A stretch of DNA of 64,000 nt from Candidatus Brocadia sp. (GTDB taxonomy: Bacteria > Planctomycetota > Brocadiia > Brocadiales > Brocadiaceae). Location of the stretch: assembly GCA_021463795.1 (NCBI GenBank), contig JAJTXE010000003.1, forward strand, positions 553,364 through 617,363. Reading direction: 5' to 3'. This document shows positions 14,739 through 64,000 of this stretch, one piece after another. The notes below the pieces were generated by a model. The model was not told the origin of the DNA. It saw nothing but the letters and a program-made list of their open reading frames with translations, and searched no databases. The position numbers and the translations under genes are program-made. Positions within the stretch are counted from its first letter, which is position 1. The number at the start of each line of letters is the position of its first letter.

Positions 14739-14760
14739 CTTGATTTTATAAGACAACTGT

Positions 14761-41873: not shown

Positions 41874-41890
41874 GCTTATAAGATATATTG

Positions 41891-44170: not shown

Positions 44171-44216
44171 AAACGCTCCTTTGTATTAATTTAAGGTTTA
44201 GGAATTTCAAAGCTGA

Positions 44217-44292: not shown

Positions 44293-44303
44293 ATTTTGTG
44301 AAT

Positions 44304-44582: not shown

Positions 44583-44691
44583 GACAATTTTTTGTTTGAC
44601 AATTTATATTTTTCCTATATCTTTACTTTTTTGAGGTTTTGTTAAGATTTCTTTGTCCGCAGAATTAAATCGTTAAGGAGCTTTCTGTTCT

Positions 44692-45081: not shown

Positions 45082-45370
45082 GCAATCTGTGAACAATTAT
45101 CTTCCCTACATGAGCCAGCGGTAACAGACAATCAATTTTCTCATACCATAGGAGCGGAATTGAAAACCGTAAGGTTGTTTAAGAATTATTCCTTCATCCC
45201 CGTTTCCCCGTTTTTATTGCAAATTTCACCCATGCTCAACAAACAGCATATTTGTTTGGTAAAATTAACAAGATTATGGACCCGTTTATAGGCGTCCGTA
45301 ATTTTAAAGATAAAATTTTTATACGTTTGAGGCAATGCCTCGATAAAATACCAAAAGGAGATTTTTGAGA

Positions 45371-47296: not shown

Positions 47297-47303
47297 GTAA
47301 AAC

Positions 47304-48647
47304 ATGACGTCAATTCGTAAATATAAGGAATGGTTAATACCACTCCGTCGTCGTTTTTCTCCGATGTTGTTTCGTGAACTTTTGCGGTTTCTGCGGGTCT
47401 ATTCTTTTTTCTTCCGGGGAAATAAAAAGAAAGAATTGGTTTCCCTGCGCGTTCAGACCCGTGTCGGCGTAAAGCATCTGTACAAGGTGTATGCCAACCC
47501 GAAACGAACTGTTTGGACGACGATGTTCGTTCCGTCAGAAATGCTGTTTGCCATGGGATTGTATCCTTTTTGCCTGGAAATTGGCGCGGCGCTCTTTGCT
47601 GGTTTGGGACAAAGCTCGAAGGGGCTTATGGAGGCTGAGTCATATGGAGTTCCCACGGATATCTGCACCTTTCACCGATCCGCAATCGGGCACACCTTCA
47701 GAGATCTTTTTCCCAAAAACATCCTCCAGGTGGCCACGACAACGCTTTGTGATAACAACACCAAGACGATGAAGATATGCGAGTCTGTATCGGGAAAAGA
47801 GACCATCGTTATTGACGTGCCTTACGAGGCAGATGATTATTCGGTTCAATATCTTGCGAAACAACTGGAAGATTTTGCTCGCCGGCTAGAAGAGATCTCA
47901 GGCAGGAAGATGGAACAAGCGGCACTTGCAAAAGCAATTGATTACGCAAACCAAACACGGGAAAAGATGATCGAAATCAATGAGTTGAGAAAAGATCCGT
48001 TTTGTCCCCTCCCCGGTAGCAATGCATTAGGGTTTATGTTTCCGGCATATTTGTTAATTGGCTCGAAACTATCCGTGGAGTTTTTCTCTGCGCTGGCTGC
48101 TGAATTACGTGAGAAAACTGAAGAAGACAAGAAGAAAGGGGGACCTAGTCCCCGAAAAGATCTGATCAGGATTCTTTGGTTAGAATTAAAGCCTTATTTT
48201 AAGGTCGATTTCCTGACAAAATTAGAACAGGAGCAAGGGGTCAGGATTGTTTTTGAGGAAACCAATTACGTATACTGGGATAAGCTTGATCCGCAAAGAC
48301 CCTATGAAAGCCTTGCAAAGAAGCTCATTACCAGCCACTATAATGGTCCATTGGAGCGGCGTATTGAGATAACCAGGAAGCTTGCCAGAGAGTATCAGGT
48401 TGACGGCGTAGTGGTATTTTCATCCTGGGGCTGCAGGCGCAATAATGCTGCTGTGCCCACGCTGAAAAGGGAATTGAATAAGATCGGCTACCCCCTCCTC
48501 AGTCTTGACGGAGATTGTATCGATGATCACAATTATATGCCGGGACAATTCTCCACACGGATAGAAGGCTTTTTAGAGATGTTACGGGGAAGGAAAACAT
48601 CCGAGAGCCTTCCACAACCAGAAATATGTGAAGTGGGGGCAAGTTAA
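47304..48647 (+). CDS. 2-hydroxyacyl-CoA dehydratase / benzoyl-CoA reductase BcrB/C / double-cubane-cluster family subunit
   Basis: ...VWTTMFVPSEMLFAMGLYPFCLE..., ...GVPTDICTFHRSAIG..., ...TTTLCDNNTKT..., ...SSWGCRRNN... Starts 7 nt after the previous gene. Confidence 0.8.
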   Translation: MTSIRKYKEWLIPLRRRFSPMLFRELLRFLRVYSFFFRGNKKKELVSLRVQTRVGVKHLYKVYANPKRTVWTTMFVPSEMLFAMGLYPFCLEIGAALFAGLGQSSKGLMEAESYGVPTDICTFHRSAIGHTFRDLFPKNILQVATTTLCDNNTKTMKICESVSGKETIVIDVPYEADDYSVQYLAKQLEDFARRLEEISGRKMEQAALAKAIDYANQTREKMIEINELRKDPFCPLPGSNALGFMFPAYLLIGSKLSVEFFSALAAELREKTEEDKKKGGPSPRKDLIRILWLELKPYFKVDFLTKLEQEQGVRIVFEETNYVYWDKLDPQRPYESLAKKLITSHYNGPLERRIEITRKLAREYQVDGVVVFSSWGCRRNNAAVPTLKRELNKIGYPLLSLDGDCIDDHNYMPGQFSTRIEGFLEMLRGRKTSESLPQPEICEVGAS

Positions 48648-48651
48648 AAGG

Positions 48652-49272
48652 TTATTCGCTTTCATCTCTGCAACATGCAAGGCCTGCCACGACTTTTTCC
48701 AGGGGTGTCTTCCTGCGTATGATACCAGGGATAGCGAAATGGGGCAGTGTCCGTCACCATAATGCCAGAACGGCCGCCGTTCCCGATGCATTGTCATTAG
48801 CCCCCGGTGTATCTTCAAGCGAGTCGTAGTGCCCGCCGATTACCACAATTTCTCCCGGCCTTTCAGAACCGGTAATCTCACCTTCAAGATTATAACATCT
48901 CCGACCTCGCAAACTGCTCAAACTCACTTCATAGCCTTGACGGGAGACCTTAAGGCCTGCTTGTTGCAACGATGCTTCAATAAAATCTGCCGCAACAGCA
49001 AGATTTTTGTAGTTCGTTCTGACATTGCGGTCGCCGATCACTCCGGCTAATTGGTACACATCTTCCCGCAAAGTTTGCCTCAATAATTTTTGTTCCTCTG
49101 TCAGGGCGGGCATTGGCCTCTGATAGTTTTTACCTGGCATTCGAAACATAACGAACCACACCCCAATGCAAACAAGAGCAACGACAGGAATAACGTAAAC
49201 AAGAGAAACTTTATGCCGCCAGTCCTTCTTTATAGATGAGACAGGAAGGCTTTGTCCTGGCAAACGTTTCAC
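48652..49272 (-). pseudogene. M28-family aminopeptidase, internally deleted and frameshifted
   Basis: The N-terminal part reads ...IVVIGGHYDSLEDTPGANDNASGTAAVLALW* (first His/Asp zinc ligands). About 5 codons later, in another frame, comes TAPFRYPWYHTQEDTP (the C-terminal His ligand block). The last stretch (L)EKVVAGLACCRDESE* returns to the first frame. The ~130-150 residues that normally carry the Glu-Glu and Asp ligands are missing. Confidence 0.75.
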
Positions 49273-49334
49273 CCCGGTGACTATCTCAGGATGTTACTGA
49301 TTGTAAAACATTATTTGTAGGCGAAAATACCTCT

Positions 49335-50081
49335 TTATGAGTCCTGATCATATTTTACTTCGATGAGGCACAGGCCTTTTGCGGGCGCTGTGGGACCCGC
49401 GAGGTTCCTGTTCTTTGCACCTAAGATATCCTTCATGCTTTCCACCATAATTTTTCCCCTTCCCACCTCGATAAGAGTACCTACCATTGTTCTTACCATG
49501 TTATACAGAAAACCATTCGCCTCAACAGTAAAATAGAGATATTTCCCCTCTCTGGTAATCTCCAGCCTTTTTACCGTGCGTATCCGGTTTTTTCCCTGAA
49601 GTGCACTTGTGGTGAAGGAGGTAAAATCGTGAGTGCCTATGAGGTATTGTGCAGCGTACCGCATTTTCTCTGCATTCAGCAGAAGGCCGCAGAGATAACA
49701 AAAATTGCGATTGAGCGAGGTTCTTATCCAGTTATTAAGAAGCGTATATCGGTAGATCTTTGATTGAGCATCATATTGAGCATGAAAAGATACCGGTACA
49801 TCAGCCGCACCTTTTACGGTGATGTCGTGAGGGAGATAGAAATTGATGGCATGAATCAGCCGCTTGGATGGAACAGAGGATGTAGTTTTAAAATTTGCTA
49901 CCTGACCCAGGGCGTGCACCCCTGAATCAGTTCTGCTGGCGCCATAAATTTTAACCGGCTCCTGAACGACCTGTTCTACCGCCTTTGAAAGCATTTCCTG
50001 GACGGTTTTCTGGTCATTCTGCCATTGCCAGCCTGCGTATTGCGTACCGTCATATTCTATTAAAAGCCGTATGTTACGCAT
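49335..50081 (-). CDS. truA: tRNA pseudouridine(38-40) synthase
   Basis: MRNIRLLIEYDGTQYAGWQWQ..., ...GASRTDSGVHALGQV... Confidence 0.95.
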   Translation of the reverse strand: MRNIRLLIEYDGTQYAGWQWQNDQKTVQEMLSKAVEQVVQEPVKIYGASRTDSGVHALGQVANFKTTSSVPSKRLIHAINFYLPHDITVKGAADVPVSFHAQYDAQSKIYRYTLLNNWIRTSLNRNFCYLCGLLLNAEKMRYAAQYLIGTHDFTSFTTSALQGKNRIRTVKRLEITREGKYLYFTVEANGFLYNMVRTMVGTLIEVGRGKIMVESMKDILGAKNRNLAGPTAPAKGLCLIEVKYDQDS

Positions 50082-50139
50082 AGGCTAAATGAGTATTGTA
50101 AAGATGTACTCCCCGCAACTAAATCTCCCCCCCTTGGCC

Positions 50140-50196
50140 GGTAGAACAAGCGTTCCCGTTTGTCATTACGATATCAACCTGGCGGCTGACCTGCCT
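50140..50196 (+). repeat. GTCATT-core palindromic intergenic repeat (copy A, full length)
   Basis: GGTAGAACAAGCGTTCCCgtTTGTCATTACGATATCAACctGGCGGCTGACCTGCCT. Collinear with the copy at 57997-58055, with additional flank similarity on both sides. Confidence 0.65.
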
Positions 50197-50525
50197 CATG
50201 GTTTTGAGGGTTGCAAAATACTTGTAAAAAATTGAAACAAAAAAGATAGGTACAATCAACCAAAAAAAACACCTTTCACATATCTGTTTTTACTCAAAAT
50301 AGGTCTGAATCTTTTGTCGCAGTCCCCTGTGCTATCGTCAGGGGTCAGCAGGGTTTTGAGAATTCTGACAGAAAATCACCATGTTGAGACAGCATTATTC
50401 GGACAAAAACATTTTAACCGGCATTGCTTTTGTGGATTGACATTGTCATGGAAAACTGGAATACTATTCAATTCTTAATAAAAGCAGAGGTAGGTGTATC
50501 ATTTATCTGGAATGAGGAGAAGGCT

Positions 50526-51083
50526 ATGGTAATACCAGCGGGAACATATCATTTGACTGCGAATTCAGGAAAGTTGTCTGTTTATACGTTTAAAGAGGGA
50601 TTTCTCAGTGCAGTGGCTCATGACCTGTTAATCGAAGTGACCGGTTTTTCTGTTAAACTACATATTCCGGCCGGAGACATCCGTTTCGCAAGTGTGGAAG
50701 CCGAAATTCAGGCCAATTCATTGAAGGTAATCTGCGCCATGAAGGATGGTCTGCAACGGCATGATCTGCTGAAGGAAAAGGACAAGTCAGACATCGAAGA
50801 AGCCACTTTTAAGGATGTGCTACATTCGGACAAACACCCAGTTATCAACTTTCGTTCCACAAATATCCAGGAAAGGGACGGTGCGTACCACGTCGAAGGT
50901 GAGCTGGCCTTACATGGGGTTACGCGTCCTGCAGCATTTTCCGTGAAAACTACTGGAAAAGATCTTAAAGGAAAATTCATCCTGTCACAGAAAGATTATG
51001 GAATAAAACCTTACAAGGCGTTATTGGGAACGCTCAAGGTGAAAAACGAGATAGAGATGACGTTTGATTTCTCGTTAAGTTAA
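50526..51083 (+). CDS. YceI-like (polyisoprenoid-binding) domain protein, no signal peptide
   Basis: GAGGAG Shine-Dalgarno sequence 6 nt before the ATG at 50526. ...SGKLSVYTFKEGFLSAVAHDLLIEV... and ...VEGELALHGVTRPAAF... The track ORF opens at a TTG at 50424. Confidence 0.8.
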   Translation: MVIPAGTYHLTANSGKLSVYTFKEGFLSAVAHDLLIEVTGFSVKLHIPAGDIRFASVEAEIQANSLKVICAMKDGLQRHDLLKEKDKSDIEEATFKDVLHSDKHPVINFRSTNIQERDGAYHVEGELALHGVTRPAAFSVKTTGKDLKGKFILSQKDYGIKPYKALLGTLKVKNEIEMTFDFSLS

Positions 51084-51284
51084 ACATGATTGTAAACCAG
51101 TCCAGGTCATTTTAGTTTGGTGGATCTTTAAGATACCTGCTTTAAAAAATACCTTTATTTTTGGAACAAAAATTTATACAATTACGGTTTTTAGTTCAAC
51201 ACCAGAAACTTAAATAAGGTGAATTGCGGTTTAAACGGTGGCCGGTTTTTGATGATTGTTTCAGCGGAAGCGGAAAAGGGGTAA

Positions 51285-51776
51285 ATGGTGGAAAACAATA
51301 GAAGAAAATTCCTGAAAGTTGTGTCACATAGCCTGGGAGGTGTTTTGGCAGCAGGCATCGCAGCGCCACTGGTTGGTTTAGGGATACACCCGTGGCTGAA
51401 AGAAACAGTGTATGGAACTGAGGACTTTATTAACCTTGGCAAATTGGAAGATTTTCCCGTTGGTATTCCTAAAAAAATGAACGTTACCTCTTCCAAGATG
51501 GATGCATGGAATGTCTTTGAAGGATTGGTTATGGGGTCGGTTTGGGTGCTGCGGAAAGAAGATGATTCTTTAAAGGTATTTTCGGTAAATTGCCCGCATC
51601 TTGGCTGTGGCATCAACTGGGGAGAAGATGAAAAGCAATTTCTGTGTCCCTGCCACGAAGGGGTTTTTGACATAAATGGTAAGGTACTATCGGGGCCCGC
51701 ACCTCGCAGCCTTTACAGTTACGAAACGAAGATTGAAAATGATAATGTTCTGGTAAATTATAAAAAATTGATATAA
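51285..51776 (+). CDS. Rieske [2Fe-2S] protein with a twin-arginine signal
   Basis: NRRKFLKVV (Tat motif), CPHLGC...CPCHEGVF (Rieske boxes). 163 aa. Confidence 0.9.
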   Translation: MVENNRRKFLKVVSHSLGGVLAAGIAAPLVGLGIHPWLKETVYGTEDFINLGKLEDFPVGIPKKMNVTSSKMDAWNVFEGLVMGSVWVLRKEDDSLKVFSVNCPHLGCGINWGEDEKQFLCPCHEGVFDINGKVLSGPAPRSLYSYETKIENDNVLVNYKKLI

Positions 51777-51805
51777 AGATATTGTTAAAAGGTGATAGGT
51801 AATCT

Positions 51806-53593
51806 ATGGCAAACAAGCTTGGTGAATGGATAGAAGACAGAACTGGACTTAGCAAACTGTTAAAAGCGGCGTTGGATGAGCCAGTGCATGGCGGGGCCAA
51901 ATGGTCATATATTTTTGGGAGCGGACTGGTATTTCTCTTCGTTCTGCAGGCGGTGACCGGCATTTTTATGGCGAGTTACTATTCTCCTTCTTCGACGGCA
52001 GCGTGGGGAAGTGTTTATTACCTTCAGTACAAAACCTCTTTCGGATGGTTTGTACGCGGCGTGCACCATTATGGTTCGAGCGCAATGATGATCGTGGCCA
52101 TGGTGCATATGTTTCAGGTCTTTATTTTCGGCGCATATAAAAAACCCCGGGAGCTGAATTGGATTTCCGGAGTTATCCTGCTTTTATTCCTGGCTGGCTT
52201 TGGTCTTACCGGGTATCTGTTGCCTTGGGATCAGAAGGGATACTGGGCCACACAGGTTGCCACCAATATTATGGGAACGGTCCCGGTGATTGGAAAGTAC
52301 ATTAAGATTCTGCACCAGGGAGGGGCCGACTATGGGAATTTTACCATAACCCGTTTCTACACCCTGCATGTATTTTTATTACCCATTTCGCTCGTCTTTT
52401 TCCTCTTTATTCACATAGCCCTTTTTCGTAAGCACGGGGTAACCCCATATTGGAAAATGAGAGAAGATGTGTTAAGAGACCGTATTGACCCCTTTTGGCC
52501 TGACCAGATATTTAAAGACATTGTATTCGCTCTGGGCATGTATGCAGTCATTGCCGGCGTTGTTTTTTGGACACGGGGCGCCGAGCTGCAATCGCCAGCA
52601 GACCCTGCCTCTAATTACCTTGCACGGCCTGAATGGTATTTCTTATTCTTGTTTGAACTCTTAAAATATTGCCAGGGAAAATATCTCATTGTCGGAACTG
52701 TGATCATTCCCGCCCTTGCTCTGACTTTTTTATTTGTACTGCCATTTATCGACAGAAATACCTCAAGGTATCCTTCAAAGAGGATGCCATATTTTGGAGC
52801 GATATTTTCTGGATTGACCGGGGCCGTTGTTTTGACCGTGCTCGCCATGCATCATGACAGCAAGGATATCCATATCATCCATCAGCGTGAGGAGGCAGAG
52901 AAACAGGCCGCTAGAGCGGTGAAGTTAGCAGAAAAAGGTATTCCTCCCACGGGAGCCCTGTCGATCTTCCTTCACGATCCCCTTGCCCTTGGTGGAAAAA
53001 TCTTTAAAGAAAGCTGTATTGGTTGTCATAAAATAGGAGTGGAGGGCGGTGATAATGGCCCTGACTTTACCAACTTTGGTTCAAGAGAATGGATTGCCGG
53101 GCTGTTGAAAAACCCGAAAGACGTAAAGTATTTCAAAGAATCAGGGGCGATGCCTCCCATAAAACTCCCGGATGAATCACTCCTGGACATGACGGAATTC
53201 CTTTTAAGCCAGTCAGAGGGCTTGATCCATCAAAATGCCGAACGAGTGGAGAGGGGAAAAGAACTGGTATTAAAAGGGAATTGCGTTGTCTGCCATCCCA
53301 TTGGCAACAAAGACCTGAAAAAGATCGCACCAAACCTGACGGAATATCTGTCGGAGACATGGTTAAAAGAATTCATCAGGAACCCGGGCGATCCTAGATT
53401 CTACGGTACCAGGAATAAAATGCCTGCCTTTGACAGGCTTACCGATAGCCAGTTAGATGCACTGATTCAGTACTTATTCAGTTTATCAAAGGATCGGGCG
53501 CTGGTTTCCGAAAAACAGGAAAAGGGAAAAAGGGGGTATGTGTTCGGTCTCACCTCCCCGCGGACAATGATTACTTTTCAAGACAAGTCCTGA
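51806..53593 (+). CDS. cytochrome b (b6 plus subunit IV-like) fused to a C-terminal dihaem cytochrome c
   Basis: ...FVRGVHHYGSSAMMIVAMVHMFQVF... and ...GYLLPWDQKGYWAT... belong to the cyt b core. Two CxxCH motifs are present: CIGCH (nt 53015-53029) and CVVCH (nt 53282-53296). 595 aa. Confidence 0.9.
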   Translation: MANKLGEWIEDRTGLSKLLKAALDEPVHGGAKWSYIFGSGLVFLFVLQAVTGIFMASYYSPSSTAAWGSVYYLQYKTSFGWFVRGVHHYGSSAMMIVAMVHMFQVFIFGAYKKPRELNWISGVILLLFLAGFGLTGYLLPWDQKGYWATQVATNIMGTVPVIGKYIKILHQGGADYGNFTITRFYTLHVFLLPISLVFFLFIHIALFRKHGVTPYWKMREDVLRDRIDPFWPDQIFKDIVFALGMYAVIAGVVFWTRGAELQSPADPASNYLARPEWYFLFLFELLKYCQGKYLIVGTVIIPALALTFLFVLPFIDRNTSRYPSKRMPYFGAIFSGLTGAVVLTVLAMHHDSKDIHIIHQREEAEKQAARAVKLAEKGIPPTGALSIFLHDPLALGGKIFKESCIGCHKIGVEGGDNGPDFTNFGSREWIAGLLKNPKDVKYFKESGAMPPIKLPDESLLDMTEFLLSQSEGLIHQNAERVERGKELVLKGNCVVCHPIGNKDLKKIAPNLTEYLSETWLKEFIRNPGDPRFYGTRNKMPAFDRLTDSQLDALIQYLFSLSKDRALVSEKQEKGKRGYVFGLTSPRTMITFQDKS

Positions 53594-53682
53594 GCAAAAT
53601 CCGGAAGCTGATGCACGGAAGTTCAACAGAATTATAACATCTATATCGTGGTGCAGCAAAGCCGTAAACAAATCCCTCTATT

Positions 53683-53712
53683 GGTAGGACAAGCGTCCCG
53701 GTTGACCTACCT
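53683..53712 (+). repeat. GTCATT-family repeat, collapsed copy B (arms only, central core missing)
   Basis: GGTAGGACAAGCGTCCC|GGTTGACCTACCT is the left and right arms of copies A and C joined directly (11 of 13 bp stem). Left-flank similarity to copy C is also present (caaagc..aaac.aat.cctct.tt). Confidence 0.6.
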
Positions 53713-54120
53713 AACAGCCGTATTCTGATTGCCGTAAGCGAAATGGTGAAGGAGGGCGGTTTAGGAAACGATATCAGTGAATTGCCGGTGGCTGGCGCGT
53801 GCACGGAGTGGATGAGTGAAAAGGCAATTGCTATCGGGCAATTTCTGGTAGCCTCTGGTATTTATACCGTCTTTGGTATGAATTCGCCGGTGGCTGGTGC
53901 TCCCGATATGCAAAGGTTGCTAACAAAAGAGATGGAAGAGATGTGTGGCGCACGATGGGATTTTGAGGCTGATTTAAAGAAGATCGGAAAGATGCTCATG
54001 GATCACATCGAAAAGAAGAGAGATGCACTTGGTATTAACGTGAATAAGGAGAGAAAACTGTACGATATGGCTGAGAGAAGGGCGCTCGAAAGGGAGTGCA
54101 AGCCGGCAGCACATCATTAA
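53713..54120 (+). pseudogene. acsA: Ni,Fe-CO dehydrogenase catalytic subunit (AcsA/CooS), C-terminal ~135 codons only
   Basis: NSRILIAVSEMVKEGGLGNDISELPVAGACTEWMSEKAIAIGQFLVASGIYTVFG... matches the extreme C-terminus of CooS/AcsA (..VDNSRI.., LPVA...EWMSEKA). An in-frame stop lies at 53665-53667. No N-terminal ~500 codons exist upstream, because the cyt b stop is at 53593. Confidence 0.8.
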
Positions 54121-54142
54121 AGTGATTTAAAGGGGTGTTTTT

Positions 54143-56326
54143 ATGTCCAAGATTATCTGTACTGCCGCCATTCGCGGCGCATATAAAATTGTAGATAAGG
54201 CTGATAAAAAACTTGCCGATGCAATAGCGCAAAAGGGACGCGATTGCAAGGTGGAGTTTCCGAACACGGCGTATTACTTGCCCATCATTTATTCCATGAC
54301 GGGTGTTGCCGTGAAAACACTGGAGGATTGCGAGTATATCCTGGGAATGGCGCGGAGCATGCTCCCGCCATTGCCGGCAGAAAAGCACTGGGTACCTTAC
54401 CTTGGGCATACCCTTGATGCCGGGATGGCAACGCTTTTTGCCGAGGAAGTGTATGAGGCCTGTAAATATCTCATCGGGCCTCACCCGGTAGACGGAATAT
54501 GGCTTGGCGCTGCTGATGACGTTATCATGCGCGAACGCGGCATTGAGTTTGTCGATGGCACGGCGCCAGGGTTTGCCGCAATTGTGGGGTGTGCGCCTGA
54601 TGCAGATACGGCCGTGAAGATTGCCAGGGAACTTCAGCAAAAGAATCTGTACGTGTTTATGCAGTCAGATAATTTTGGGACATCGTTTGCCGAGCAATTG
54701 GCTGAAAAGGGCGTCCAGATGGGGTGGGATACCCGACTGGTGCCTTTTGGAAAAGAGACCTCGGCTGCTGTATATTCTCTGGGTTTTGCCAACAGGGCAG
54801 CCCTTTCATTTGGAAATGTGCCCCCCGGTGAGGCAAGGAGAAATCTCCTCTATAACAAAAACCGCATCTTTGCATTTGTTATGGCAATAGGAACCGCCGT
54901 AACAGATGAACAGTATGCCAACGCAGCGGGTGCTATCAATTATGGTTTTCCGACGATTTCAAATATCGACATTCCGGAGATATTGCCCACCGGCGTATGT
55001 ACCTATGAACACGTGGTTTCAAGGGTGCCGGTGGACAAGATTGTTGATAAATGCATTGAAGTCCGTGGGCTAAAGATTTCTATCCACAAGATGGATATCC
55101 CCGTGGCGTACGGTCCGGCTTTCGAAGGTGAGCGTATCAGAAAAGAGGATATGCAGATTGAGATTGGCGGCCCCGGCGTCCCTGCATTTGAATATGTGTG
55201 CACCAAAGAAATTGACGCGGTTGAGGATGGCAAAATACAGGTTATCGGGCCAGACCTGGACGAAATTAAGCCGGGACCAGGTGTGTCGCTTGGTATCATG
55301 GTTGAGGTGGCAGGCCGAAAGATGCAGCCTGATTTTGAGCCAATCTTCGAACGTCAGATGCACCGGTTTCTGGGTGAAGCCCAGGGCCTGTTCCACATGG
55401 GGCAAAGGGACATCATCCGTCATCGCATCAGTAAAGAGGCATTTAAGGCAGGGTTCAGGATCAAGCATATCGGCAGTATCATCCATTCGCAGTTCCATAG
55501 TAATTTTGGGGCGATTGTTGACAAAGTGCAGGTTACCTTTTATACCAAAAGGGAAGATGTGGAGCGGATATTAAAAGACGTGCGCGCCGCTTATGCAGAG
55601 CGTGATGCGCGATTAGAGGGTATGACCGATGACTCGGTGAACATGTTTTACAGTTGCACCCTCTGTCAAAGTTTTGCGCCTACCCATATTTGCGTTGTGA
55701 CACCGGAACGTTCCGGTCTTTGTGGCTCCGTCAGCTGGCTGGACGGCAAGGCAGGCTACGAGATCAACCCCACAGGGCCAAATCAGCCGATCGAGCGTGG
55801 CAAGGTGGTGAATGAAAATCTGGGGCAGTGGGAAGGCACGAACTCATTTATCTATAATGGGTCAAACCGGTCGCTGGAGAAGGTAAGTTTGTATAGTATT
55901 ATGACAGACCCGATGACCAGTTGCGGCTGTTTTGAGTGCATCTCGGCGATGTTGCCCATGACGAATGGGATTATGGTGGTAGACCGTGACTTCACGGAAA
56001 TGACCCCCTGTGGTATGAAATTTTCCACGCTTGCCGGGACGGTTGGCGGTGGTTTGCAGACCCCCGGGTTTATGGGGCACAGCAAGTTTTATTTAGGCAG
56101 TAGGAAATTCATTTCAGCCGATGGTGGTTTGGGCCGTGTTGTGTGGATGCCCAAGGCACTGAAGGAGGAGTTGGCGGAAACGCTTGCCGATACGGCACAG
56201 GAGCTTGGTCTTGAAGATTTTCTCAATAAAATAGCTGATGAAACGGTTGCTCAGACTGAGGACGAAGTTGTGGCTTATATGCAGAAAGTTAGCCATCCGG
56301 CTTTGGTTATGCCGGGAAAAGATTAA
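54143..56326 (+). CDS. acsB: acetyl-CoA synthase (CODH/ACS A-cluster subunit)
   Basis: MSKIICTAAIRGAYKIV..., A-cluster cysteines CTLCQSFAPTHICVVTPERSGLCG and SCGCFEC. 727 aa, apparently full length. Confidence 0.95.
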   Translation: MSKIICTAAIRGAYKIVDKADKKLADAIAQKGRDCKVEFPNTAYYLPIIYSMTGVAVKTLEDCEYILGMARSMLPPLPAEKHWVPYLGHTLDAGMATLFAEEVYEACKYLIGPHPVDGIWLGAADDVIMRERGIEFVDGTAPGFAAIVGCAPDADTAVKIARELQQKNLYVFMQSDNFGTSFAEQLAEKGVQMGWDTRLVPFGKETSAAVYSLGFANRAALSFGNVPPGEARRNLLYNKNRIFAFVMAIGTAVTDEQYANAAGAINYGFPTISNIDIPEILPTGVCTYEHVVSRVPVDKIVDKCIEVRGLKISIHKMDIPVAYGPAFEGERIRKEDMQIEIGGPGVPAFEYVCTKEIDAVEDGKIQVIGPDLDEIKPGPGVSLGIMVEVAGRKMQPDFEPIFERQMHRFLGEAQGLFHMGQRDIIRHRISKEAFKAGFRIKHIGSIIHSQFHSNFGAIVDKVQVTFYTKREDVERILKDVRAAYAERDARLEGMTDDSVNMFYSCTLCQSFAPTHICVVTPERSGLCGSVSWLDGKAGYEINPTGPNQPIERGKVVNENLGQWEGTNSFIYNGSNRSLEKVSLYSIMTDPMTSCGCFECISAMLPMTNGIMVVDRDFTEMTPCGMKFSTLAGTVGGGLQTPGFMGHSKFYLGSRKFISADGGLGRVVWMPKALKEELAETLADTAQELGLEDFLNKIADETVAQTEDEVVAYMQKVSHPALVMPGKD

Positions 56327-56471
56327 CCGTTTGATTTCTGTTGAGACGGGACAACCCCTGGGAAAGGTAGAGACGGATACCAAGAGAAATTTCTGGATGT
56401 CCGCTGAAGAAGCTTTCAAATACGGATTGGTCAGTAAAATTATACAGACGAGTGATGATTTAAAGACATAG
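56316..56471 (+). pseudogene. clpP: ClpP protease, C-terminal ~45-50 codon remnant
   Basis: EKINRLISVETGQPLGKVETDTKRNFWMSAEEAFKYGLVSKIIQTSDDLKT* matches the ClpP C-terminal pattern (…TGQ..e.i..Dt.RD.fMsAeEA.eYGL.D.I…). It overlaps the acsB stop in another frame. No catalytic part lies upstream. Confidence 0.7.
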
Positions 56472-56612
56472 TTTTATGGTAATTGCTCAATATCAACGGC
56501 ACGCATGTTCTTTTTATATCCACTCCGTTATCCACTTTTCATGAATGCGGGTGAGTGGGTGGTTATTCGTTTGATGATGTGCAAATTTCTTTATGTGAAA
56601 GGATAGTAGAGC

Positions 56613-57953
56613 ATGGCACTAACGGGATTAGACATTTATAAACTCCTTCCCAAAACAAATTGCAAGAAGTGCGGAAGGCCTACCTGTCTTGCATTTGCGA
56701 TGCAATTGGCGCAAAAAAAGGCAAACCTGTCGGATTGTCCGGATGTAAGCGAAGAGGCAAAAAAAGTGCTGGGTGCGGCAGCAGCCCCTCCCATTAAACT
56801 CGTGACGGTTGGTGCGGGCGCCAGACAAGTTCAGGTGGGTGAGGAAAATGTCCTGTTCAGACACGAAGAGAAGTTTTATCATCCCACGGGCGTCGCCGTC
56901 ACTATCCCGGACGACCTGAGTGAAGATGCTTTCAACGACCGGTTAAAAAAGGTTAACAGTTTGAAACTTACCCGTGTTGGTACGGAAATCGAGATTGACC
57001 TGATTGCCGTGATGAACAAGAGCAATAATGCAGAAAAATTTGCCGAAGCGGCAAAGAAAGTAAGTGCCGGGTCTCATTTGAATATGATTTTAAGCAGTGC
57101 GTCTGTGGATAATATGAAGGCTGCTTTGCAACATTGTGCTGAAAAGAGACCGCTGCTTCATGGCGCCAGTGCCAGCAACTGTGAGGCAATGGCAGCTCTT
57201 GCACAGGAAAAGAAGTGCCCGATGACCGTAACAGCCCAGACCCTTGAGGAGCTTGCTGAACTGGCAGAACGTGCCAAAAAGGCTGGCGTTGAAGAGATTG
57301 TTCTGGATGTGGGAGGGAACAATCCCAAAGAGGTGCTGCAAAAACTGACCAAGGTTCGTCGCCTTGCCTTAAAGAAAAATTTCCGCACGCTCGGATTCCC
57401 GATGATTACCTTTGTGTGTGATGAAGACCCGTTCCAGGAAATCGCACTGGCAAGCACCTATTTGCTGAAGTATGCCGGCATTGTTGCGGTGAATGCGTGT
57501 GAGCCATGGGCAATTATGCCCCTGCTTACTGCCAGGACAAATATATTTACGGATCCGCAAAAGCCCATACAGGTGGAGCCGCGATTGTACGCCGTTGGTG
57601 ACGTTAAGGATGATTCCCCGATATTGTTTACCACAAACTTCTCACTTACCTATTATACGGTTGAGGGAGAGGTTGAGTCGAGCCGTGTGCCTGCCTATAT
57701 TTTAGCGGTGGATACGGGTGGGACCTCCGTGCTAACTGCGTACTCAGGAGACAAATTAAACGACAAGGTGGTTGCGAAGGCCATGACAGACGCACAGGTT
57801 GATACCAAGGTAAAGCATAAGAAAATGATCATCCCGGGTCTTGTTGCCGTGATGTCCGGGAAATTGCAGGAGACCCTTGGATGGGAAATTCTGGTGGGTC
57901 CACGAGAGGCTTCGGGACTCCCTTCCTATCTGAAAACGGTGTGGAAAGCGTAA
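56613..57953 (+). CDS. acsC: corrinoid iron-sulfur protein, large subunit
   Basis: MALTGLDIYKLLPKTNCKKCGRPTCLAFAMQLAQKKANLSDCP ([4Fe-4S] motif). 446 aa. Confidence 0.95.
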   Translation: MALTGLDIYKLLPKTNCKKCGRPTCLAFAMQLAQKKANLSDCPDVSEEAKKVLGAAAAPPIKLVTVGAGARQVQVGEENVLFRHEEKFYHPTGVAVTIPDDLSEDAFNDRLKKVNSLKLTRVGTEIEIDLIAVMNKSNNAEKFAEAAKKVSAGSHLNMILSSASVDNMKAALQHCAEKRPLLHGASASNCEAMAALAQEKKCPMTVTAQTLEELAELAERAKKAGVEEIVLDVGGNNPKEVLQKLTKVRRLALKKNFRTLGFPMITFVCDEDPFQEIALASTYLLKYAGIVAVNACEPWAIMPLLTARTNIFTDPQKPIQVEPRLYAVGDVKDDSPILFTTNFSLTYYTVEGEVESSRVPAYILAVDTGGTSVLTAYSGDKLNDKVVAKAMTDAQVDTKVKHKKMIIPGLVAVMSGKLQETLGWEILVGPREASGLPSYLKTVWKA

Positions 57954-57996
57954 CATAACAAAGCTGCAACCAATACCTCTCTATTACCTCTCTCTT

Positions 57997-58055
57997 GGTA
58001 GGACAAGCGTCCCCACTTGTCATTATGATGTCAACCGGGGACGGTTGACCTGCCT
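57997..58055 (+). repeat. GTCATT-core palindromic intergenic repeat (copy C, full length)
   Basis: GGTAGGACAAGCGTCCCCacTTGTCATTATGATGTCAACcGGGGACGGTTGACCTGCCT. The outer arms are an imperfect inverted repeat. The core has GTCA..GTCA spaced 11 nt apart. Confidence 0.65.
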
Positions 58056-58175
58056 TAGGGATTTGCGGACGTGGTAAAAAACTTGCAAAAGCATGTCCTC
58101 ATGAAAATGGGGAAAGAATTTCTTACACAATAATACGATAAAACTGTTTAAGGATTTTCACTTCAGGTCTAATGT

Positions 58176-60203
58176 ATGGAAAACTCACGATTTAAAGTAC
58201 AGTTCTTTCCTGTTGACGTTACCGTAGAGATTGAAAAGGGAAAAACTATCCTCGATGCTGCATATAAGGGAGACCTGTTTATAAACGCCCTGTGCGGGGG
58301 CGACGGCACGTGCGGCAAGTGTAAAGTCATTCTGGGTTCCGGTATGATTGAAAGCATGCCCACGACTCATATCTCGGTATCAGAGGCGCAAAAAGGGTAT
58401 GTCCTCGCATGCAGTACAAAGGTAATGGGCAACCTGGAAGTAATCATTCCTGAAGAATCGAAGCTTGATAAAAGTCAAATCCTTGTCAGTGAATTTCCTC
58501 AATTCTCAGGTTCCCTGGCAGCAGCTACCGCTAACGTGGAACATTTTCAGCAAGACCCTTTGGTGAATAAAGTATATCTTGAACTGCCGCAACCTACCCT
58601 GGATGACAGTATGGCTGATTATGAGCGGCTGTGCAGGGAGATCATGGTGAAAACCCACGTTCCACTGGAAAAGCTGACTACAAATTTCGATGTCCTCAAA
58701 CGCCTTCCGGGTATTCTGAGGAGCAGTAACTGGAAGGTGACGATGACGCTGGGATACAGGGGTCCGTCGGTAGAAATTATGGAAATACAGGGGGGCAATG
58801 CCAGCGAAGGAAATTATGGTGTTGCCGTGGACGTTGGAACAACCACGGTGGTTGCGCACCTTATGAATCTTTCCCGCGGAGAGACGGTCGATGTTGAAGC
58901 AACCTACAATTCTCAGATTAAATATGGGGACGATTATATTCAGAGGATTATGTATGCCGCTGAAAATAACGCCATGGAGCTCATGCAGGAGGTGCTGGTT
59001 GAGGATATTAACCATCTCATTTCTACCCTTGTTAAGAGAAACCATCTTAGTATCCACGATATTCATGCGGTGGTTTGTGCGGGAAATACGGTAATGACCC
59101 ATTTTCTCATCGGTTTGGACCCTACGAATATCAGAAAAGAGCCGTATCTTCCGTCCGCAAGCTTTGTGCCTCCGTTGAGGGCACATGAGGTAGGGGTGAA
59201 AATTAATAGCAACGGCCTGCTCTATACCCTCCCGTGCGTTGGCGCTTATGTGGGAGGGGATATTTCTTCTGGTGCTTTGGCAATCAGGCTGGACAAGGCG
59301 GAGATGTTGTCGCTGCTCGTTGATATCGGCACGAATGGCGAGATTGTGCTGGGCAATAAAGACTGGATGGTGTGCTGTTCCGCATCGGCAGGCCCTTCTT
59401 TTGAAGGCAGCGGTATCTCCTGTGGTACCCGTGCGGCTAAGGGTGCTATTGAAAAGGTGTCGATTACAAAAAATTACCATGTTACGTATAAAACCATCGG
59501 AGACGCCCCGGCAAGCGGTATTTGTGGCTCCGGGCTTTTAGACTGCCTGGCGAATCTTGTCAGAAGTGGTGTCATCGACAGAACTGGCAATTTCCAGAAA
59601 GGAATAAGCTCAGATCGTTTGAGGAAAACAGACAACGGCTATGAATTTATCCTGGTTGACAGGAGCGAAACCTCTACAAAACGGGATATCGTTATTACCC
59701 AGGCGGACATTCAGAATCTCATGCGGTCAAAAGCGGCGATCTATTCGGCAATCTCTACCCTGCTCGAATCCATGGGAATGGAAGCAAGTAATATTGAGCA
59801 GCTCTATCTTGCGGGCGGGTTTGGCAATTATCTCGACATACGGAGCGCGATCACGATTGGGATGCTCCCTGACATGTCTGCTTCAAAAGTACAGTTTGTA
59901 GGGAATACCTCGGTGCTTGGCGCAAAGATGGTCCTCCTCGCAAAAGATGCCTATGAAGTGATGCTCCCTGACATGTCTGCTTCAAAAGTACAGTTTGTAG
60001 GGAATACCTCGGTGCTTGGCGCAAAGATGGTCCTCCTCGCAAAAGATGCCTATGAAGTTGCCAGAGTCATTGCGTCCAAGATGACATATTTTGATCTCAT
60101 GAGTAATAATAAATACATGGAGGAATATGTATCGGCAAACTTTTTGCCGCACACCGATATTGAAAAATTTCCATCCGTTGCAGAGGAACTGATGGTAAGT
60201 TAG
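58176..60203 (+). CDS. reductive activase of the corrinoid Fe-S protein (RACo: [2Fe-2S] ferredoxin plus ASKHA ATPase, DUF4445-type), carrying an internal 33-aa duplication
   Basis: N-terminal CGGDGTCGKCKV...LAC ferredoxin, ASKHA motifs VAVDVGTTTVVAH and LLVDIGTNGEIVLG. 675 aa including the duplicated MLPDMSASKVQFVGNTSVLGAKMVLLAKDAYEV. Confidence 0.9.
   Translation: MENSRFKVQFFPVDVTVEIEKGKTILDAAYKGDLFINALCGGDGTCGKCKVILGSGMIESMPTTHISVSEAQKGYVLACSTKVMGNLEVIIPEESKLDKSQILVSEFPQFSGSLAAATANVEHFQQDPLVNKVYLELPQPTLDDSMADYERLCREIMVKTHVPLEKLTTNFDVLKRLPGILRSSNWKVTMTLGYRGPSVEIMEIQGGNASEGNYGVAVDVGTTTVVAHLMNLSRGETVDVEATYNSQIKYGDDYIQRIMYAAENNAMELMQEVLVEDINHLISTLVKRNHLSIHDIHAVVCAGNTVMTHFLIGLDPTNIRKEPYLPSASFVPPLRAHEVGVKINSNGLLYTLPCVGAYVGGDISSGALAIRLDKAEMLSLLVDIGTNGEIVLGNKDWMVCCSASAGPSFEGSGISCGTRAAKGAIEKVSITKNYHVTYKTIGDAPASGICGSGLLDCLANLVRSGVIDRTGNFQKGISSDRLRKTDNGYEFILVDRSETSTKRDIVITQADIQNLMRSKAAIYSAISTLLESMGMEASNIEQLYLAGGFGNYLDIRSAITIGMLPDMSASKVQFVGNTSVLGAKMVLLAKDAYEVMLPDMSASKVQFVGNTSVLGAKMVLLAKDAYEVARVIASKMTYFDLMSNNKYMEEYVSANFLPHTDIEKFPSVAEELMVS
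59861..60058 (+). repeat. perfect 2 x 99-bp in-frame tandem duplication inside the RACo gene
   Basis: Unit 1 (59861-59959) and unit 2 (59960-60058) are identical base for base (gatgctccctgacatgtctg...gatgcctatgaagt). The flanking bases differ, so each unit is exactly 99 bp (33 codons). Confidence 0.97.
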
Positions 60204-60246
60204 GCCTTCGGCTACGTATAAATACAAATTTTCCCGACTGGAGTCC

Positions 60247-60304
60247 ATCCCCTTTCACCCCTGCCAGCGGGGGACATTTGTTTGTCGCCTTCCGTGAGAG
60301 GGAT
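60247..60304. repeat. imperfect palindrome of the CCCCTTTCAC...GTGAGAGGG type
   Basis: ATCCCCTTTCAC (60247-60258) pairs with GTGAGAGGGAT (60294-60304), with mismatches. Intergenic, between the RACo gene and cooC. Confidence 0.35.
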
Positions 60305-60359
60305 TAAGGGGGAGAAAATTTTTGTTTGAAATTTCTAAACCTTCAAAAAAGAGGTTTCT

Positions 60360-61151
60360 ATGGCTTTTAATATTGCAGTGGCAGGAAAGGGAGGAACGGG
60401 GAAGTCGACCCTTTCTGCCCTTATTATCCGATATATTACCGAAGAGCTTGGTAAGCCGGTATCGGCGGTAGATGCCGATCCGAATGCGTCTCTCGGTTCA
60501 TTGCTTGGTCTGCACGTGCAAAGCACCGTTGCTGACATCCGTGAAGATATCGTGGAGAAAAAAGTAGATTTTTCCGGGATGTCTAAGGACAGATATATTG
60601 AGTATGCCATCGAGGAGTCTATCATTGAAAAGGAGAAATTTGATCTTTTAACGATGGGGAGGCCGGAAGGGCCGAAATGTTATTGCTATGTCAATAATCT
60701 CCTGCGTAAATATCTTGATAAAGTAGGCACAACGTACCCGTTTATTGTTACCGACAATGAGGCAGGGATGGAGCATCTCTCACGCAGGACAACGAACAAT
60801 GTCGATCTCCTGTTGATTGTAAGTGAACCAACGATTGTAGGTGCATTGACCTTACAAAGGATCATCGCATTAGCTGAATCTCTTTCGGTTACGATCCGGC
60901 AAAAGTATTGTATCCTAAACCGGGTGCCCCAGAAGGGTATTCATGAAAATCTTCAGCAGAAGTTGGACAGCCTGGGAATTGAAGTATCTGCGATTTTCCC
61001 CTTTGATCAGGAGGTTTACGATACTGCGGCGTGTGGTGCTTCTGTGTTTGAAATTTCCCGTGAAAATGAGCTATATCAAAAACTGGGGAATTTCCTGCAG
61101 AAACATTTGCCGGCAAGTATGCTCGAAAAGAGCATCTCTGGGCGTACCTAA
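60360..61151 (+). CDS. cooC: CooC/AcsF-type Ni-insertion accessory ATPase
   Basis: AVAGKGGTGKST (P-loop) and GPKCYCYVNN (the CxC metal site). 263 aa. Confidence 0.9.
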   Translation: MAFNIAVAGKGGTGKSTLSALIIRYITEELGKPVSAVDADPNASLGSLLGLHVQSTVADIREDIVEKKVDFSGMSKDRYIEYAIEESIIEKEKFDLLTMGRPEGPKCYCYVNNLLRKYLDKVGTTYPFIVTDNEAGMEHLSRRTTNNVDLLLIVSEPTIVGALTLQRIIALAESLSVTIRQKYCILNRVPQKGIHENLQQKLDSLGIEVSAIFPFDQEVYDTAACGASVFEISRENELYQKLGNFLQKHLPASMLEKSISGRT

Positions 61152-61185
61152 AAGAGCGCGCCTTTAAAGGTTATACGCAGACACT

Positions 61186-61243
61186 TGTCATTGCGAGGAA
61201 CGCATGTAACGAAGCAATATTAATTCAAGGTTTAGGAATTTTA
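61186..61243. repeat. GTCATT-core repeat (copy R6) followed by a 25-nt motif shared with 44186-44210
   Basis: cacTTGTCATTGCgaggaacgcatgtaacgaaGCAATattaattcAAGGTTTAGGAATTTtaa. The stretch attaatt-N-aaggtttaggaattt-N-aa recurs at 44186-44210 with 2 mismatches. Confidence 0.45.
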
Positions 61244-61420
61244 ACCTTTTTGACTCAGGTAGAGCGACCAGCCTTGTCGTTCCACAATGAGGGAAGCTTA
61301 AAGTCGCTGCCTAAGGCAGCCAAAATAAAGAAAAACTCGTTCATTGACGTGTCCGCCAGCACGATGATGAGGTTTCTTGAGATTTTTAGATATTGAACGG
61401 ATTGGGTAGGAGAGAAATGA

Positions 61421-62380
61421 ATGGAAATACCAAATGTAGCTGACAAGTGGTCGGGTACGGTTAATGAAATTACCCTTGGCGCCACAAAGGACAATGGAGG
61501 TACGAGGACAAAGACCATTACGATTGGTGGTGCAAAAAGTATCCCTTTTATGGACTTTGAGGGGAATCCGGGACAAAAGCCTGTGGTTGCCATGGATGTC
61601 TATGACGTGCCGCCGGAAGACTGGCCGGAAACCCTGGCAAAACCTTTTGCGGACGTCCTTAACGATCCGGCACAATGGGCAAAAAAGTGCGTGGAACAGT
61701 ATGGTGCAGATTTAATCTGCCTCAAATTGGAGGGAATTCATCCCGATAAAGGCAACAAAACTGCAGAAGAGACCGTAAAGACGGTAAAATCGATCCTTGC
61801 TGCAGTAGGTGTCCCCCTGATTATCTGGGGATGTGAACATGACGAAAAAGACAATGAGGTCATGCCCAAGATAAGCCAGGCTGCAAGGGGAGAATGTTGT
61901 CTGATGGGGGTTGTTACCCAGGATAATTACAAGACACTTACCGCTACATGTCTGGCGGACGGACATGCGCTTATTACGCTGGCTCCGGTGGATATCAATA
62001 TTGCAAAACAGGTAAATATTCTTGTGTCTGAAATGGATTTTCCGCTCAACCGGATCGTGATGTTTCAGTCAACCGGTGCCCTGGGTTACGGTCTTGAGTA
62101 CACCTATTCTATTCAGGAACGCGAACGGCTGGCGGCGCTTACGGGTGATAAGATGATGTCGATGCCCGTAATCTGTGATGTTGGGCATGAGGCGTGGAGA
62201 ACCAAGGAGTCAAAATCGGGCGATAATGAAGTTCCCCAGTGGGGAGCGCGGGATGAGAGAGGCCCCATGTGGGAGGCTATTACGGCGGTTGGTTTGCTGC
62301 AGTCGGGTGTGGATATTATCCGTATGAGCCATCCGAAGGCCGTTGCTACGGTAAAAAAGTGTATTGACCGTTTATATTAA
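61421..62380 (+). CDS. acsD: corrinoid iron-sulfur protein, small subunit
   Basis: MEIPNVADKWSGTVNEITLGATKDNGGTRTKTITIGG... 319 aa, TIM-barrel-type CdhD/AcsD pattern. Confidence 0.95.
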   Translation: MEIPNVADKWSGTVNEITLGATKDNGGTRTKTITIGGAKSIPFMDFEGNPGQKPVVAMDVYDVPPEDWPETLAKPFADVLNDPAQWAKKCVEQYGADLICLKLEGIHPDKGNKTAEETVKTVKSILAAVGVPLIIWGCEHDEKDNEVMPKISQAARGECCLMGVVTQDNYKTLTATCLADGHALITLAPVDINIAKQVNILVSEMDFPLNRIVMFQSTGALGYGLEYTYSIQERERLAALTGDKMMSMPVICDVGHEAWRTKESKSGDNEVPQWGARDERGPMWEAITAVGLLQSGVDIIRMSHPKAVATVKKCIDRLY

Positions 62381-62485
62381 AAAACGTAATATTCACCTCA
62401 AAGACACGAATGACACAAAGGAAGAACGAAAGTAATAAAAAGTTCAAGGAATTGATAATTTTTAGAAAGAAAGGATAAACATACA

Positions 62486-63097
62486 ATGATTTCCATCGGT
62501 GAGCGCATTAATGGTATGTTTAAAGATGTACGAGAGGCGATAAAGAATAAAGATCCGAAGGCAGTAAGGGAACTTGCCATAAGACAGACAGAAGCAGGGG
62601 CAAGCTTTCTCGACGTAAATGTCGGCACTGCCGCAGCTGACCCTGTTGAGGCAATGAAATGGCTGATTGAGGTGGTTCAGGATACGGTAAAGACGCCGAT
62701 CGCCATTGATAGCCAGAAATTTGATGTAGTAAAGGCGGGTTTATCAGTTGCAAAGAACGAGATCTTGATCAATTCTTCAAAAGGAGATCCAGAAGAATTG
62801 GATAAATTCATGACCATAGCCAAGGAATATAATGCATCACTGATATGCCTGACCATGGATAAAACCGGTATTCCGCAGGACGTCGAGCGTCGCATGGAAT
62901 TTGCCATGAAGATCGTTGAAAAGGCCGTGGAGCATGAATACGAACTGTCAAAGGTCTATATCGATCCCATACTTTTCCCTATTAATGTTGATCAGAAGCA
63001 GCCAGCGCTCATGTTCGACATCTTCAATCAGATTAGAGGCACAAGCTGCAGGGGTGCCTACGATCGGTTATGGGGCATTTATCAATACGATCATTGA
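62486..63097 (+). pseudogene. acsE: methyl-THF:corrinoid/Fe-S protein methyltransferase, 3'-truncated after about codon 184
   Basis: MISIGERINGMFKDVREAIKNKDP...[27 protein letters not shown] is collinear with AcsE/MeTr. Expected next is ...P..KTV.GLSNVS... plus ~75 more residues. Instead the frame reads [19 protein letters not shown]. Confidence 0.8.
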
Positions 63098-63269
63098 TTT
63101 TATCATAGTTGCGTTCGCCATCTTTATGTTAGTTCGGGTCATCAACAAGGTAACACAACCAAAACCTGTGGCTGCACCTGCAAAAACAAAAGAATGCGCA
63201 TTCTGCATCTCCGCTGTTCCGATCAAAGCAACCCGATGTCCATTTTGCACCTCTGAGTTAAAGGCCTAA
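63036..63269 (+). pseudogene. mscL: large-conductance mechanosensitive channel, C-terminal ~75 codons only
   Basis: [39 protein letters not shown]... aligns with MscL TM2 (E. coli ...[28 protein letters not shown]). The tail is a Zn-ribbon-like [22 protein letters not shown]. There is no TM1 or start codon, because the upstream DNA is acsE in another frame. Confidence 0.75.
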
Positions 63270-63957: not shown

Positions 63958-64000
63958 ACACTCCTTTAACAGACCTGTATCATATTGACAAGGTAAATCT

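Follow-up and report, generated by a model that had tools for sequence, protein, structure and literature searches.

Broken CODH/ACS genes in a Candidatus Brocadia genome are probably the product of assembly mis-joins

Introduction

Has an anammox bacterium lost part of its carbon-fixation machinery, or has its genome been put together wrongly? The question is raised by a 64,000-nt stretch of Candidatus Brocadia DNA (hereafter the window, within which all positions are counted) that carries the acs genes of the CO dehydrogenase/acetyl-CoA synthase (CODH/ACS) in broken form. Anammox bacteria fix carbon via the acetyl-CoA pathway. At face value, the window would imply that CO dehydrogenase and part of the carbon-fixation operon have been lost from an anammox bacterium, a striking metabolic claim. 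The initial annotation had listed five independent lesions within 15 kb, affecting an M28 peptidase gene, acsA, clpP, RACo and acsE/mscL, and had offered three explanations: a redundant second acs cluster in decay, deletion variants of a mixed population captured by the consensus, or assembly errors. Every one of these lesions is present and could be placed to the base.

With a probability of roughly 0.78, we consider the four breakpoints in the acs genes to be contig ends wrongly joined during assembly, in which case the organism most probably carries a normal, intact operon. We favor this reading, the last of the three explanations, because the breakpoints occur on one contig only, come without point divergence, involve 99-bp overlaps in two cases and in part connect loci that lie apart in relatives. 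The disrupted acs genes are needed by the organism, which we also count in favor of mis-assembly. The source is a Brocadia genome assembled from a metagenome that probably held several closely related strains. Our evidence consists of assembled sequences and protein catalogues, and the relatives used for comparison are Brocadia genomes, metagenome-assembled genomes (MAGs) and Logan contigs (k = 31).

Results

The acs fragment is interrupted at four positions

The features of the acs region are as follows.

53676-53712, plus strand: intergenic copy of a dispersed palindromic REP-like element, lying 83 bp 3′ of the cytochrome b gene and cut by the 53712/53713 junction
53713-54120, plus strand: 3′ remnant of acsA (CODH catalytic subunit), codons 519-653 of 653, Pfam Prismane positions 441-513 of 513
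54143-56326, plus strand: acsB, codons 1-723 intact, the last four changed from APMF to PGKD by the 56311/56312 junction
56310-56471, plus strand: 3′ remnant of clpP, codons 160-212 of 212 by alignment to relatives, with a 2-bp ambiguity (TG)
56613-57953, plus strand: acsC (large corrinoid iron-sulfur protein subunit), intact, 446 aa, the identical protein being found on an intact Logan contig (L081)
58176-60203, plus strand: RACo (reductive activator of corrinoid protein), with a perfect in-frame 99-bp tandem duplication, 675 versus 642 aa
60360-61151, plus strand: cooC/acsF-type maturation ATPase, intact, Pfam CbiA, the exact protein being present in at least 23 contigs (50 index blocks)
61421-62380, plus strand: acsD (small corrinoid iron-sulfur protein subunit), intact, 319 aa, the same length as in relatives
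62486-63035, plus strand: 5′ part of acsE (methyltransferase), codons 1-183 of 261, Pfam Pterin_bind positions 14-186 of 244
63036-63269, plus strand: 3′ remnant of mscL, codons 71-147 of 147 by comparison with full-length MscL
63412-64000, minus strand: TPR protein gene, the natural neighbor of mscL, running off the window end (242 aa in the source contig, P0198)

As written, the locus therefore holds neither a full-length AcsA (approximately 653 aa in Brocadia) nor a complete AcsE (261 aa), as the initial annotation had noted; only codons 519-653 of the former and 1-183 of the latter are present, and a tblastn search found no N-terminal part of acsA anywhere in the window. AcsB, AcsC and AcsD have the same lengths as in relatives, with exact matches on record; in the 727-aa AcsB only the last four residues are altered.

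The breakpoints, at 53712/53713, 56311/56312, 59959/59960 and 63035/63036, were base-sharp in every comparison. The altered AcsB (AcsB′), the 675-aa RACo and the 203-aa AcsE′ each occur on one contig only among approximately 15 billion proteins, namely the 1,160,425-bp NCBI record from which the window is evidently taken. Identical proteins from an unannotated assembly would be concealed in shared entries of the protein collection. Neither AcsB′ nor the TPR fragment is on record as a gene call. Every relative compared across each of the junctions lacks it. More than 15 related assemblies (97–100% identical) carry the intact operon cooC(258)-acsA(653)-acsB(727)-clpP(208–212)-acsC(446)-RACo(642)-cooC(263)-acsD(319)-acsE(261), where the numbers give protein lengths. 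A genome scan returned intact operons only, and a metagenome scan with AcsC returned nothing above 88%. Together with a 44-bp deletion in the M28 gene, described below, this makes five private breakpoints, all limited to this assembly.

A 125-aa AcsA′ open reading frame (ORF) on Logan contig L201 was considered as a second occurrence of the acsA lesion and rejected, as it reflects a contig-edge coincidence in a strain of 96.9% identity.

The surviving acs genes show no sign of decay

Querying with AcsB retrieves Candidatus Brocadia genomes, with B. pituitae (complete genome AP021856), B. carolinensis and Brocadia sp. WS118 as the best matches. Nucleotide identity over the acs region, block by block, is 89.7–99.2% to B. 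pituitae and B. carolinensis, and 98.5–100% to Logan contigs of SRR33746415. Over 54995-61704, a stretch that spans the breakpoints at 56311 and 59960, a single base in 6.7 kb separates the window from the intact SRR33746415 contigs L081 and L102. Taken separately, 56310-58045 has one mismatch to L081 and 58025-59959 has none to L102.

Codon differences from B. carolinensis are predominantly synonymous. The synonymous/non-synonymous counts are 16/1 for acsB, 7/3 for acsC, 68/6 for RACo, 7/0 for cooC and 48/5 for acsD, giving 145 and 15 for the five genes (approximately 10:1). None of the surviving acs genes contains a frameshift or stop, and thus we see no relaxation of selection. The initial annotation had suggested a search for a second acs set; in B. 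pituitae, the closest complete genome, a single AcsB locus was found among the 80 best matches. A single base in 6.7 kb, the 10:1 excess of synonymous changes, the full-length genes and the single B. pituitae locus together leave a redundant, decaying second cluster unsupported.

Divergence from the SRR33746415 strain is patchy. There are 40 mostly third-position mismatches in 1.1 kb (53886-54994), a tract that is closer to B. carolinensis, then one in the next 6.7 kb, and 23 in the 1.3 kb of 61705-63035. The pattern resembles recombination between co-occurring Brocadia strains or, alternatively, switching of the consensus from one strain to another. A strain chimera at the junctions themselves was rejected: the closest relative is unchanged at each breakpoint, and the divergent tracts begin and end away from the junctions.

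Two of the breakpoints involve overlaps of exactly 99 bp

The duplicate units in RACo occupy 59861-59959 and 59960-60058, and form the sole direct repeat of at least 35 bp in the 64 kb.

The same length recurs at the right-hand end of the fragment. The alignment of acsE to all relatives stops at 63035, and the ORF continues out of frame to 63097, yielding the 203-aa AcsE′. A 113-aa MscL (P0225) is encoded on an unannotated NCBI contig of 2,284,717 bp, which we infer to come from the same assembly as the window. P0225 matches full-length MscL through codon 103 (position 63134) and then continues into unrelated sequence, ITMNTSYTMS, whose partner was found in none of the fetched loci. The mscL piece common to P0225 and the window remnant is 63036-63134, exactly 99 bp. 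The 99-bp RACo duplication and the 99-bp shared mscL piece thus give the breakpoints a k-mer-sized spacing.

In a de Bruijn graph, as built by assemblers such as SPAdes and IDBA-UD, neighboring contigs overlap by a fixed length set by k. Concatenating two such neighbors without merging would consequently give a k-sized tandem duplication, and assigning each of them a wrong partner would leave the shared k-mer on both products.

The outer junctions join loci that are not adjacent in relatives

The initial annotation had also proposed a comparison of synteny with related genomes. In relatives the operon is intact, and its native site lies to the left of the window and on the other strand. In B. 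pituitae the accession order is AcsE BBO15926, RACo 15930, ClpP 15932, AcsA 15934, CooC 15935, cytochrome b 15984 and TPR/MscL 18929/18930. The window has approximately 45 genes from FTHFS (490-2253) to cytochrome b, and this number, taken with the accession spacing, puts the native operon on the other strand, a few genes beyond the left end of the window. In the SOEX01 MAG (GCA_029760015.1), which is 99.1–99.4% identical to the window over 39378-53712, cytochrome b (MDG6025428) and CooC to RACo (MDG6025476-481) are on the same 270,834-bp contig and MscL is on a different one.

The 53712 join looks as if a block of approximately 60 kb, reaching from acsA codon 518/519 to the REP-like element behind cytochrome b, had been flipped. 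At 63035, acsE is joined to a locus that is distant from it in B. pituitae. Both are therefore joins of loci that are non-adjacent in relatives, not simple truncations. One fetched locus, L003, has a TPR homologue upstream of acs, without mscL.

The left junction cuts a dispersed REP-like element

The alignment of acsA to every intact relative begins at 53712/53713. On the other side, alignments of five left-side relatives stop at 53712, and Logan contigs end 58–94 bp further on. Both sides of this junction fall where independent short-read assemblies also break, with a strain-variable C/T site ahead of the right side.

The REP-like element that is cut here has a second copy in the window at 57990-58060 and copies in 12 loci, including L001 17741-17757, L012 14708-14724 and L081 8052-8068. 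Its core is TTGGTAGGACAAGCGTCCC...GGTTGACCT(A/G)CCT, and it occurs in a short form and a long, hairpin-containing form. Logan contigs repeatedly end within approximately 100 bp of its copies.

What follows cytochrome b varies by strain: one relative has a 518-aa protein and trehalose-synthesis genes, another an LTD-domain protein. These two relatives (L086 1-6370 and L091 1-942) diverge from each other 36 bp past the window's breakpoint. The idea that the segment after 63035 is the natural continuation of the cytochrome b locus was rejected, as the relatives run into the trehalose-synthesis or LTD-domain genes and not into mscL. Repeat-mediated recombination was likewise discarded; no repeats longer than 28 nt connect the breakpoints, and the shared GTTGAC near 53712 does not coincide with the junction.

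The acsB/clpP junction removes 743 bp

The junction at 56311/56312 removes 743 bp, comprising the 3′ end of acsB, intergenic hairpin repeats and 159 clpP codons; ClpP is normally 208–212 aa in relatives. The stretch absent from the window at this point measures 679–878 bp in relatives.

In every Brocadia examined, clpP is flanked by acsB and acsC within the acs operon. The spacer between acsB and clpP varies strongly in length and carries hairpin repeats of the GGGTTCAGGTTTGCAACCTGAACCC type (L081 5637-5887, L098 5236-5584, L012 12185-12900).

A proposed route from contig ends to the window

We propose that contig ends from a de Bruijn graph would have been joined into megabase-scale sequence, with an assembler and a k, 99, that we infer from these features. 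At 59959/59960, true neighbors would have been concatenated without merging their 99-bp overlap, producing the apparent RACo duplication. At 56311/56312, a short intervening piece would have been skipped. This piece would measure 743 bp, or 743 + 2 × 99 = 941 bp with its overlaps, and even the latter would be short enough for removal by a 1-kb length filter. At 53712/53713 and 63035/63036, contigs may have been given the wrong neighbor or the wrong orientation.

Several observations weigh against this scheme. The junctions were judged from assembled sequences, and the 2.28-Mb contig would have to belong to the same assembly. In a graph-edge test, the breakpoints at 56311, 59959/60 and 63035 adjoin no known strain polymorphism, and only the right side of 53712 does; graph edges have no evident reason to end at those three positions unless there were reads that carried the junctions. 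The breakpoint at 53712 sits 36 bp before the point where relatives diverge, not on it. The junctions share only 0–2 bp. Since a pure de Bruijn path error needs a shared k-mer, the scheme must also invoke chaining, scaffolding or bridging of contigs. Moreover, selection would tolerate an in-frame 99-bp duplication and an AcsB of preserved length if the variant were real.

The M28 peptidase gene is an older pseudogene

The remaining lesion on the initial list is of a different age and kind. Its features are as follows.

48652-49272, minus strand: M28 peptidase pseudogene, consisting of a 172-codon N-terminal ORF (48754-49272) and out-of-frame C-terminal remnants (48652-48753)
48694-48703: retained 10-bp direct repeat TTTTTCCAGG, the scar of a 44-bp deletion, identified from the alignment of relatives
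48760-48770, minus strand: junction of an old internal deletion of approximately 138 codons, where TTCTGGCATTA encodes both ...VLAL and SGIM...

The ORF at 48754-49272 (minus strand) covers only positions 1-43 of the 193 in the Pfam M28 profile, and the C-terminal remnant MVTDTAPFRYPWYHTQEDTP, followed by VVAGLACC, lies in other frames. More intact orthologues are 277–297 aa long, versus 172 aa for the window ORF. The loss of approximately 138 codons is common to all nine near-identical Brocadia assemblies compared, which align unbroken across the junction, and the identical 172-aa truncated gene has been called in several independent assemblies. Other strains have different lesions, with gene calls of 119+50, 131 and 169+50 aa, and one 277-aa form retains the internal part and is frameshifted near its end. 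M28 is thus shortened and out of frame compared with intact orthologues, in a form that related strains have inherited, which on this comparison makes it an old, ordinary, natural pseudogene of the whole strain group.

The older junction could reflect a deletion between direct repeats of approximately 10 bp, if such an ancestral repeat is presumed. The second deletion is private to the window: all nine relatives have 44 extra bases between two copies of TTTTTCCAGG. Simulated random structural variants are an unlikely source of this 44-bp loss, as perfect flanking 10-bp repeats would arise by chance approximately once in a million. The gene is still eroding via small slippage deletions between short direct repeats, with the 44-bp loss as a further one in this strain.

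The lesions had been presented as five independent ones. They do not form a single class of independent events: the internal M28 loss is ancient and shared, and the acs breakpoints are private. It had further been argued from the two M28 lesions that at least some of the decay is biological. For M28 this stands, given the shared loss and the placement of both deletions at short direct repeats; it does not extend to the acs lesions, on which the M28 lesions are uninformative because they are unrelated in age and kind.

The remainder of the window

From 14665 to 53712 the window is 98.6–99.9% identical to many Brocadia MAG and Logan contigs. The claim of the initial annotation that the left 48 kb is undamaged is borne out by collinearity with near-identical relatives over 14665-48693, where we found no structural difference except at approximately 165 bp (26297-26460); the check on 1-14664 was of ORF integrity only. 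The absence of mobile elements was likewise upheld, in that no transposase, integrase or phage gene is present among the annotated ORFs of the window or its collinear relatives. The window contains no N characters, which neither proves nor excludes that N-runs were stripped from a scaffold.

The exception at 26297-26460 is not covered by any fetched near-identical contig. L096 ends at 26296, L195 at 26461 and L196 at 26604, and the presence of Logan contig ends on both sides suggests another repeat or variable spot. A further cluster of contig ends surrounds the CYTH gene (14761-15414), where all six contigs shown to carry the gene end 50–96 bp past it (14665-14760; 15425). Synteny with WS118 also breaks near CYTH, with TPR-mscL-CstA-VTT-p296 standing beside the UDG gene in place of LPG-synthase/CYTH. 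The window has no visible lesion at this point.

Among other genes, that for FTHFS (formate-tetrahydrofolate ligase; 490-2253, minus strand), which belongs to the Wood-Ljungdahl methyl branch, is undamaged; judged by accession order, its distance from the native acs operon in relatives is a few genes only. At 51285-53593, an intact Rieske protein gene precedes a fused cytochrome b/di-haem cytochrome c gene, of a bc-type complex. The fused protein is 595 aa in the window and in the near-identical relatives examined, and 593 aa in WS118 and one Logan form. A candidate sixth lesion, in a DHH/RecJ-like gene near 17500, was rejected, as the WS118 gene call is merely over-extended at its N-terminus.

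Discussion

Alternative explanations for the acs breakpoints

Among the alternatives, the one that survives best holds that the junctions are real. A subpopulation or a second locus would carry a partial copy of acs, in the reverse orientation to the native operon, with an intact operon elsewhere. Such a copy could have arisen by serial template switching in replication, or from a DNA fragment captured at a break. Its path would run from the REP-like hairpin element into acsA, skip 743 bp, step back 99 bp and end in mscL, and the assembler would then have threaded this variant. The three acs segments are indeed collinear and in one orientation, and the 0–2 bp shared at the junctions are the usual signature of template switching. 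The left breakpoint lies within a palindromic element, and 100% identity to the intact operon would fit a very recent copy. The source contig is 1.16 Mb long, so that long-range information was probably used, and a de Bruijn contig normally needs reads with the junction k-mers.

Set against this, the junction-spanning ORFs that were looked up, for three of the four acs junctions, occur in no other dataset. Two exact 99-bp overlaps, one of them shared with another contig, have no biological rationale, and mscL would need a second break exactly 99 bp away. Four private events would have to fall within 9.3 kb, whereas the adjacent 39 kb has a single small one, the 44-bp M28 deletion. We therefore regard real junctions as unlikely. 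The more specific version, in which a Brocadia sub-lineage or second locus would carry an inverted and rearranged partial CODH/ACS copy made in one burst of template switching at the REP-like hairpin, is more doubtful still. If it were true, and this were the sole copy, the result would be an anammox line without CODH and methyltransferase, living on carbon from its neighbors. In the terms of the initial annotation, variant paths from a mixed population possibly fit the four acs breakpoints.

Ordinary pseudogenization, either of a redundant second acs cluster or of the sole cluster in a lineage abandoning autotrophy, has very little in its favor. Several genes of one operon are disrupted, and an undoubted pseudogene, M28, lies 5 kb away. 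Acetate can in principle be assimilated without CODH/ACS. Decay is nevertheless difficult to reconcile with surviving genes that are free of frameshifts and stops, differ by one base in 6.7 kb from an intact operon and diverge from B. carolinensis by substitutions that are approximately 10:1 synonymous. At either end the fragment is joined to a foreign locus, which is not decay, the lesions are absent in strains that are 99–100% identical, and B. pituitae has one AcsB locus only among the 80 best matches. The suggestion of a redundant, decaying second cluster was accordingly set aside; acsB (bar its last four codons), acsC, cooC and acsD are intact and show little divergence.

Least probable of all are library or amplification chimeras, from multiple-displacement amplification or fragment ligation, that would have entered a long-read assembly where coverage was low or a single read was used. 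Amplified and ligated libraries are known to contain such chimeras, and the joins here are blunt or share 1–2 bp and one brings in opposite-strand DNA from approximately 60 kb away, but the sequence is error-free relative to short-read assemblies, unlike a single raw long read, and the 99-bp regularity indicates k-mer overlaps and not random chimeras.

Consequences for the use of this genome

The comparison of assembled sequences indicates that the loss belongs to the assembly and not to the organism. In metabolic reconstructions, pseudogene counts and pangenomes that include this genome, acsA, clpP, acsE and mscL should not be treated as lost or RACo as duplicated. For megabase-scale metagenome assemblies in general, the combination of private structural breaks, no point divergence and one fixed k-mer-sized spacing is a warning sign. 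There is no new biology in the locus; the only real biology is the ordinary M28 pseudogene and the dispersed REP-like repeat.

Comparison with known systems

The M28 gene resembles bacterial pseudogenes eroded by slipped-strand events, with its 44-bp deletion, 10-bp repeats and strain-specific lesions, and has nothing unusual about it. That model covers M28 only and does not account for the acs breakpoints.

The acs breakpoints resemble rearrangements attributed to fork stalling and template switching or microhomology-mediated break-induced replication (FoSTeS/MMBIR), and tandem-inversion duplications, in their clustered low-homology junctions and in the combination of deletion, duplication and inverted placement. 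However, these mechanisms leave the fixed 99-bp lengths of the window unexplained, and the window molecule is known from assembly alone.

Relative to the Brocadia acs operon of B. pituitae (AP021856, BBO15926-15935) and B. carolinensis (AYTS01000093), the window fragment (53713-63035) has 92.8–99.2% nucleotide identity, block by block, and an unchanged order and orientation of genes. The window lacks cooC1, acsA codons 1-518, clpP codons 1-159 and acsE codons 184-261, and its RACo has 99 bp more. The fragment is on the opposite strand, approximately 60 kb from the operon's place in relatives.

Known metagenome mis-joins and unmerged k-mer overlaps differ from the present case in two respects: there are no gap characters at the joins in the window, and three of the breakpoints lie away from visible polymorphisms. 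In other respects the likeness is close, with private breakpoints, fixed and odd overlaps of 99 bp, and a repeat at one junction.

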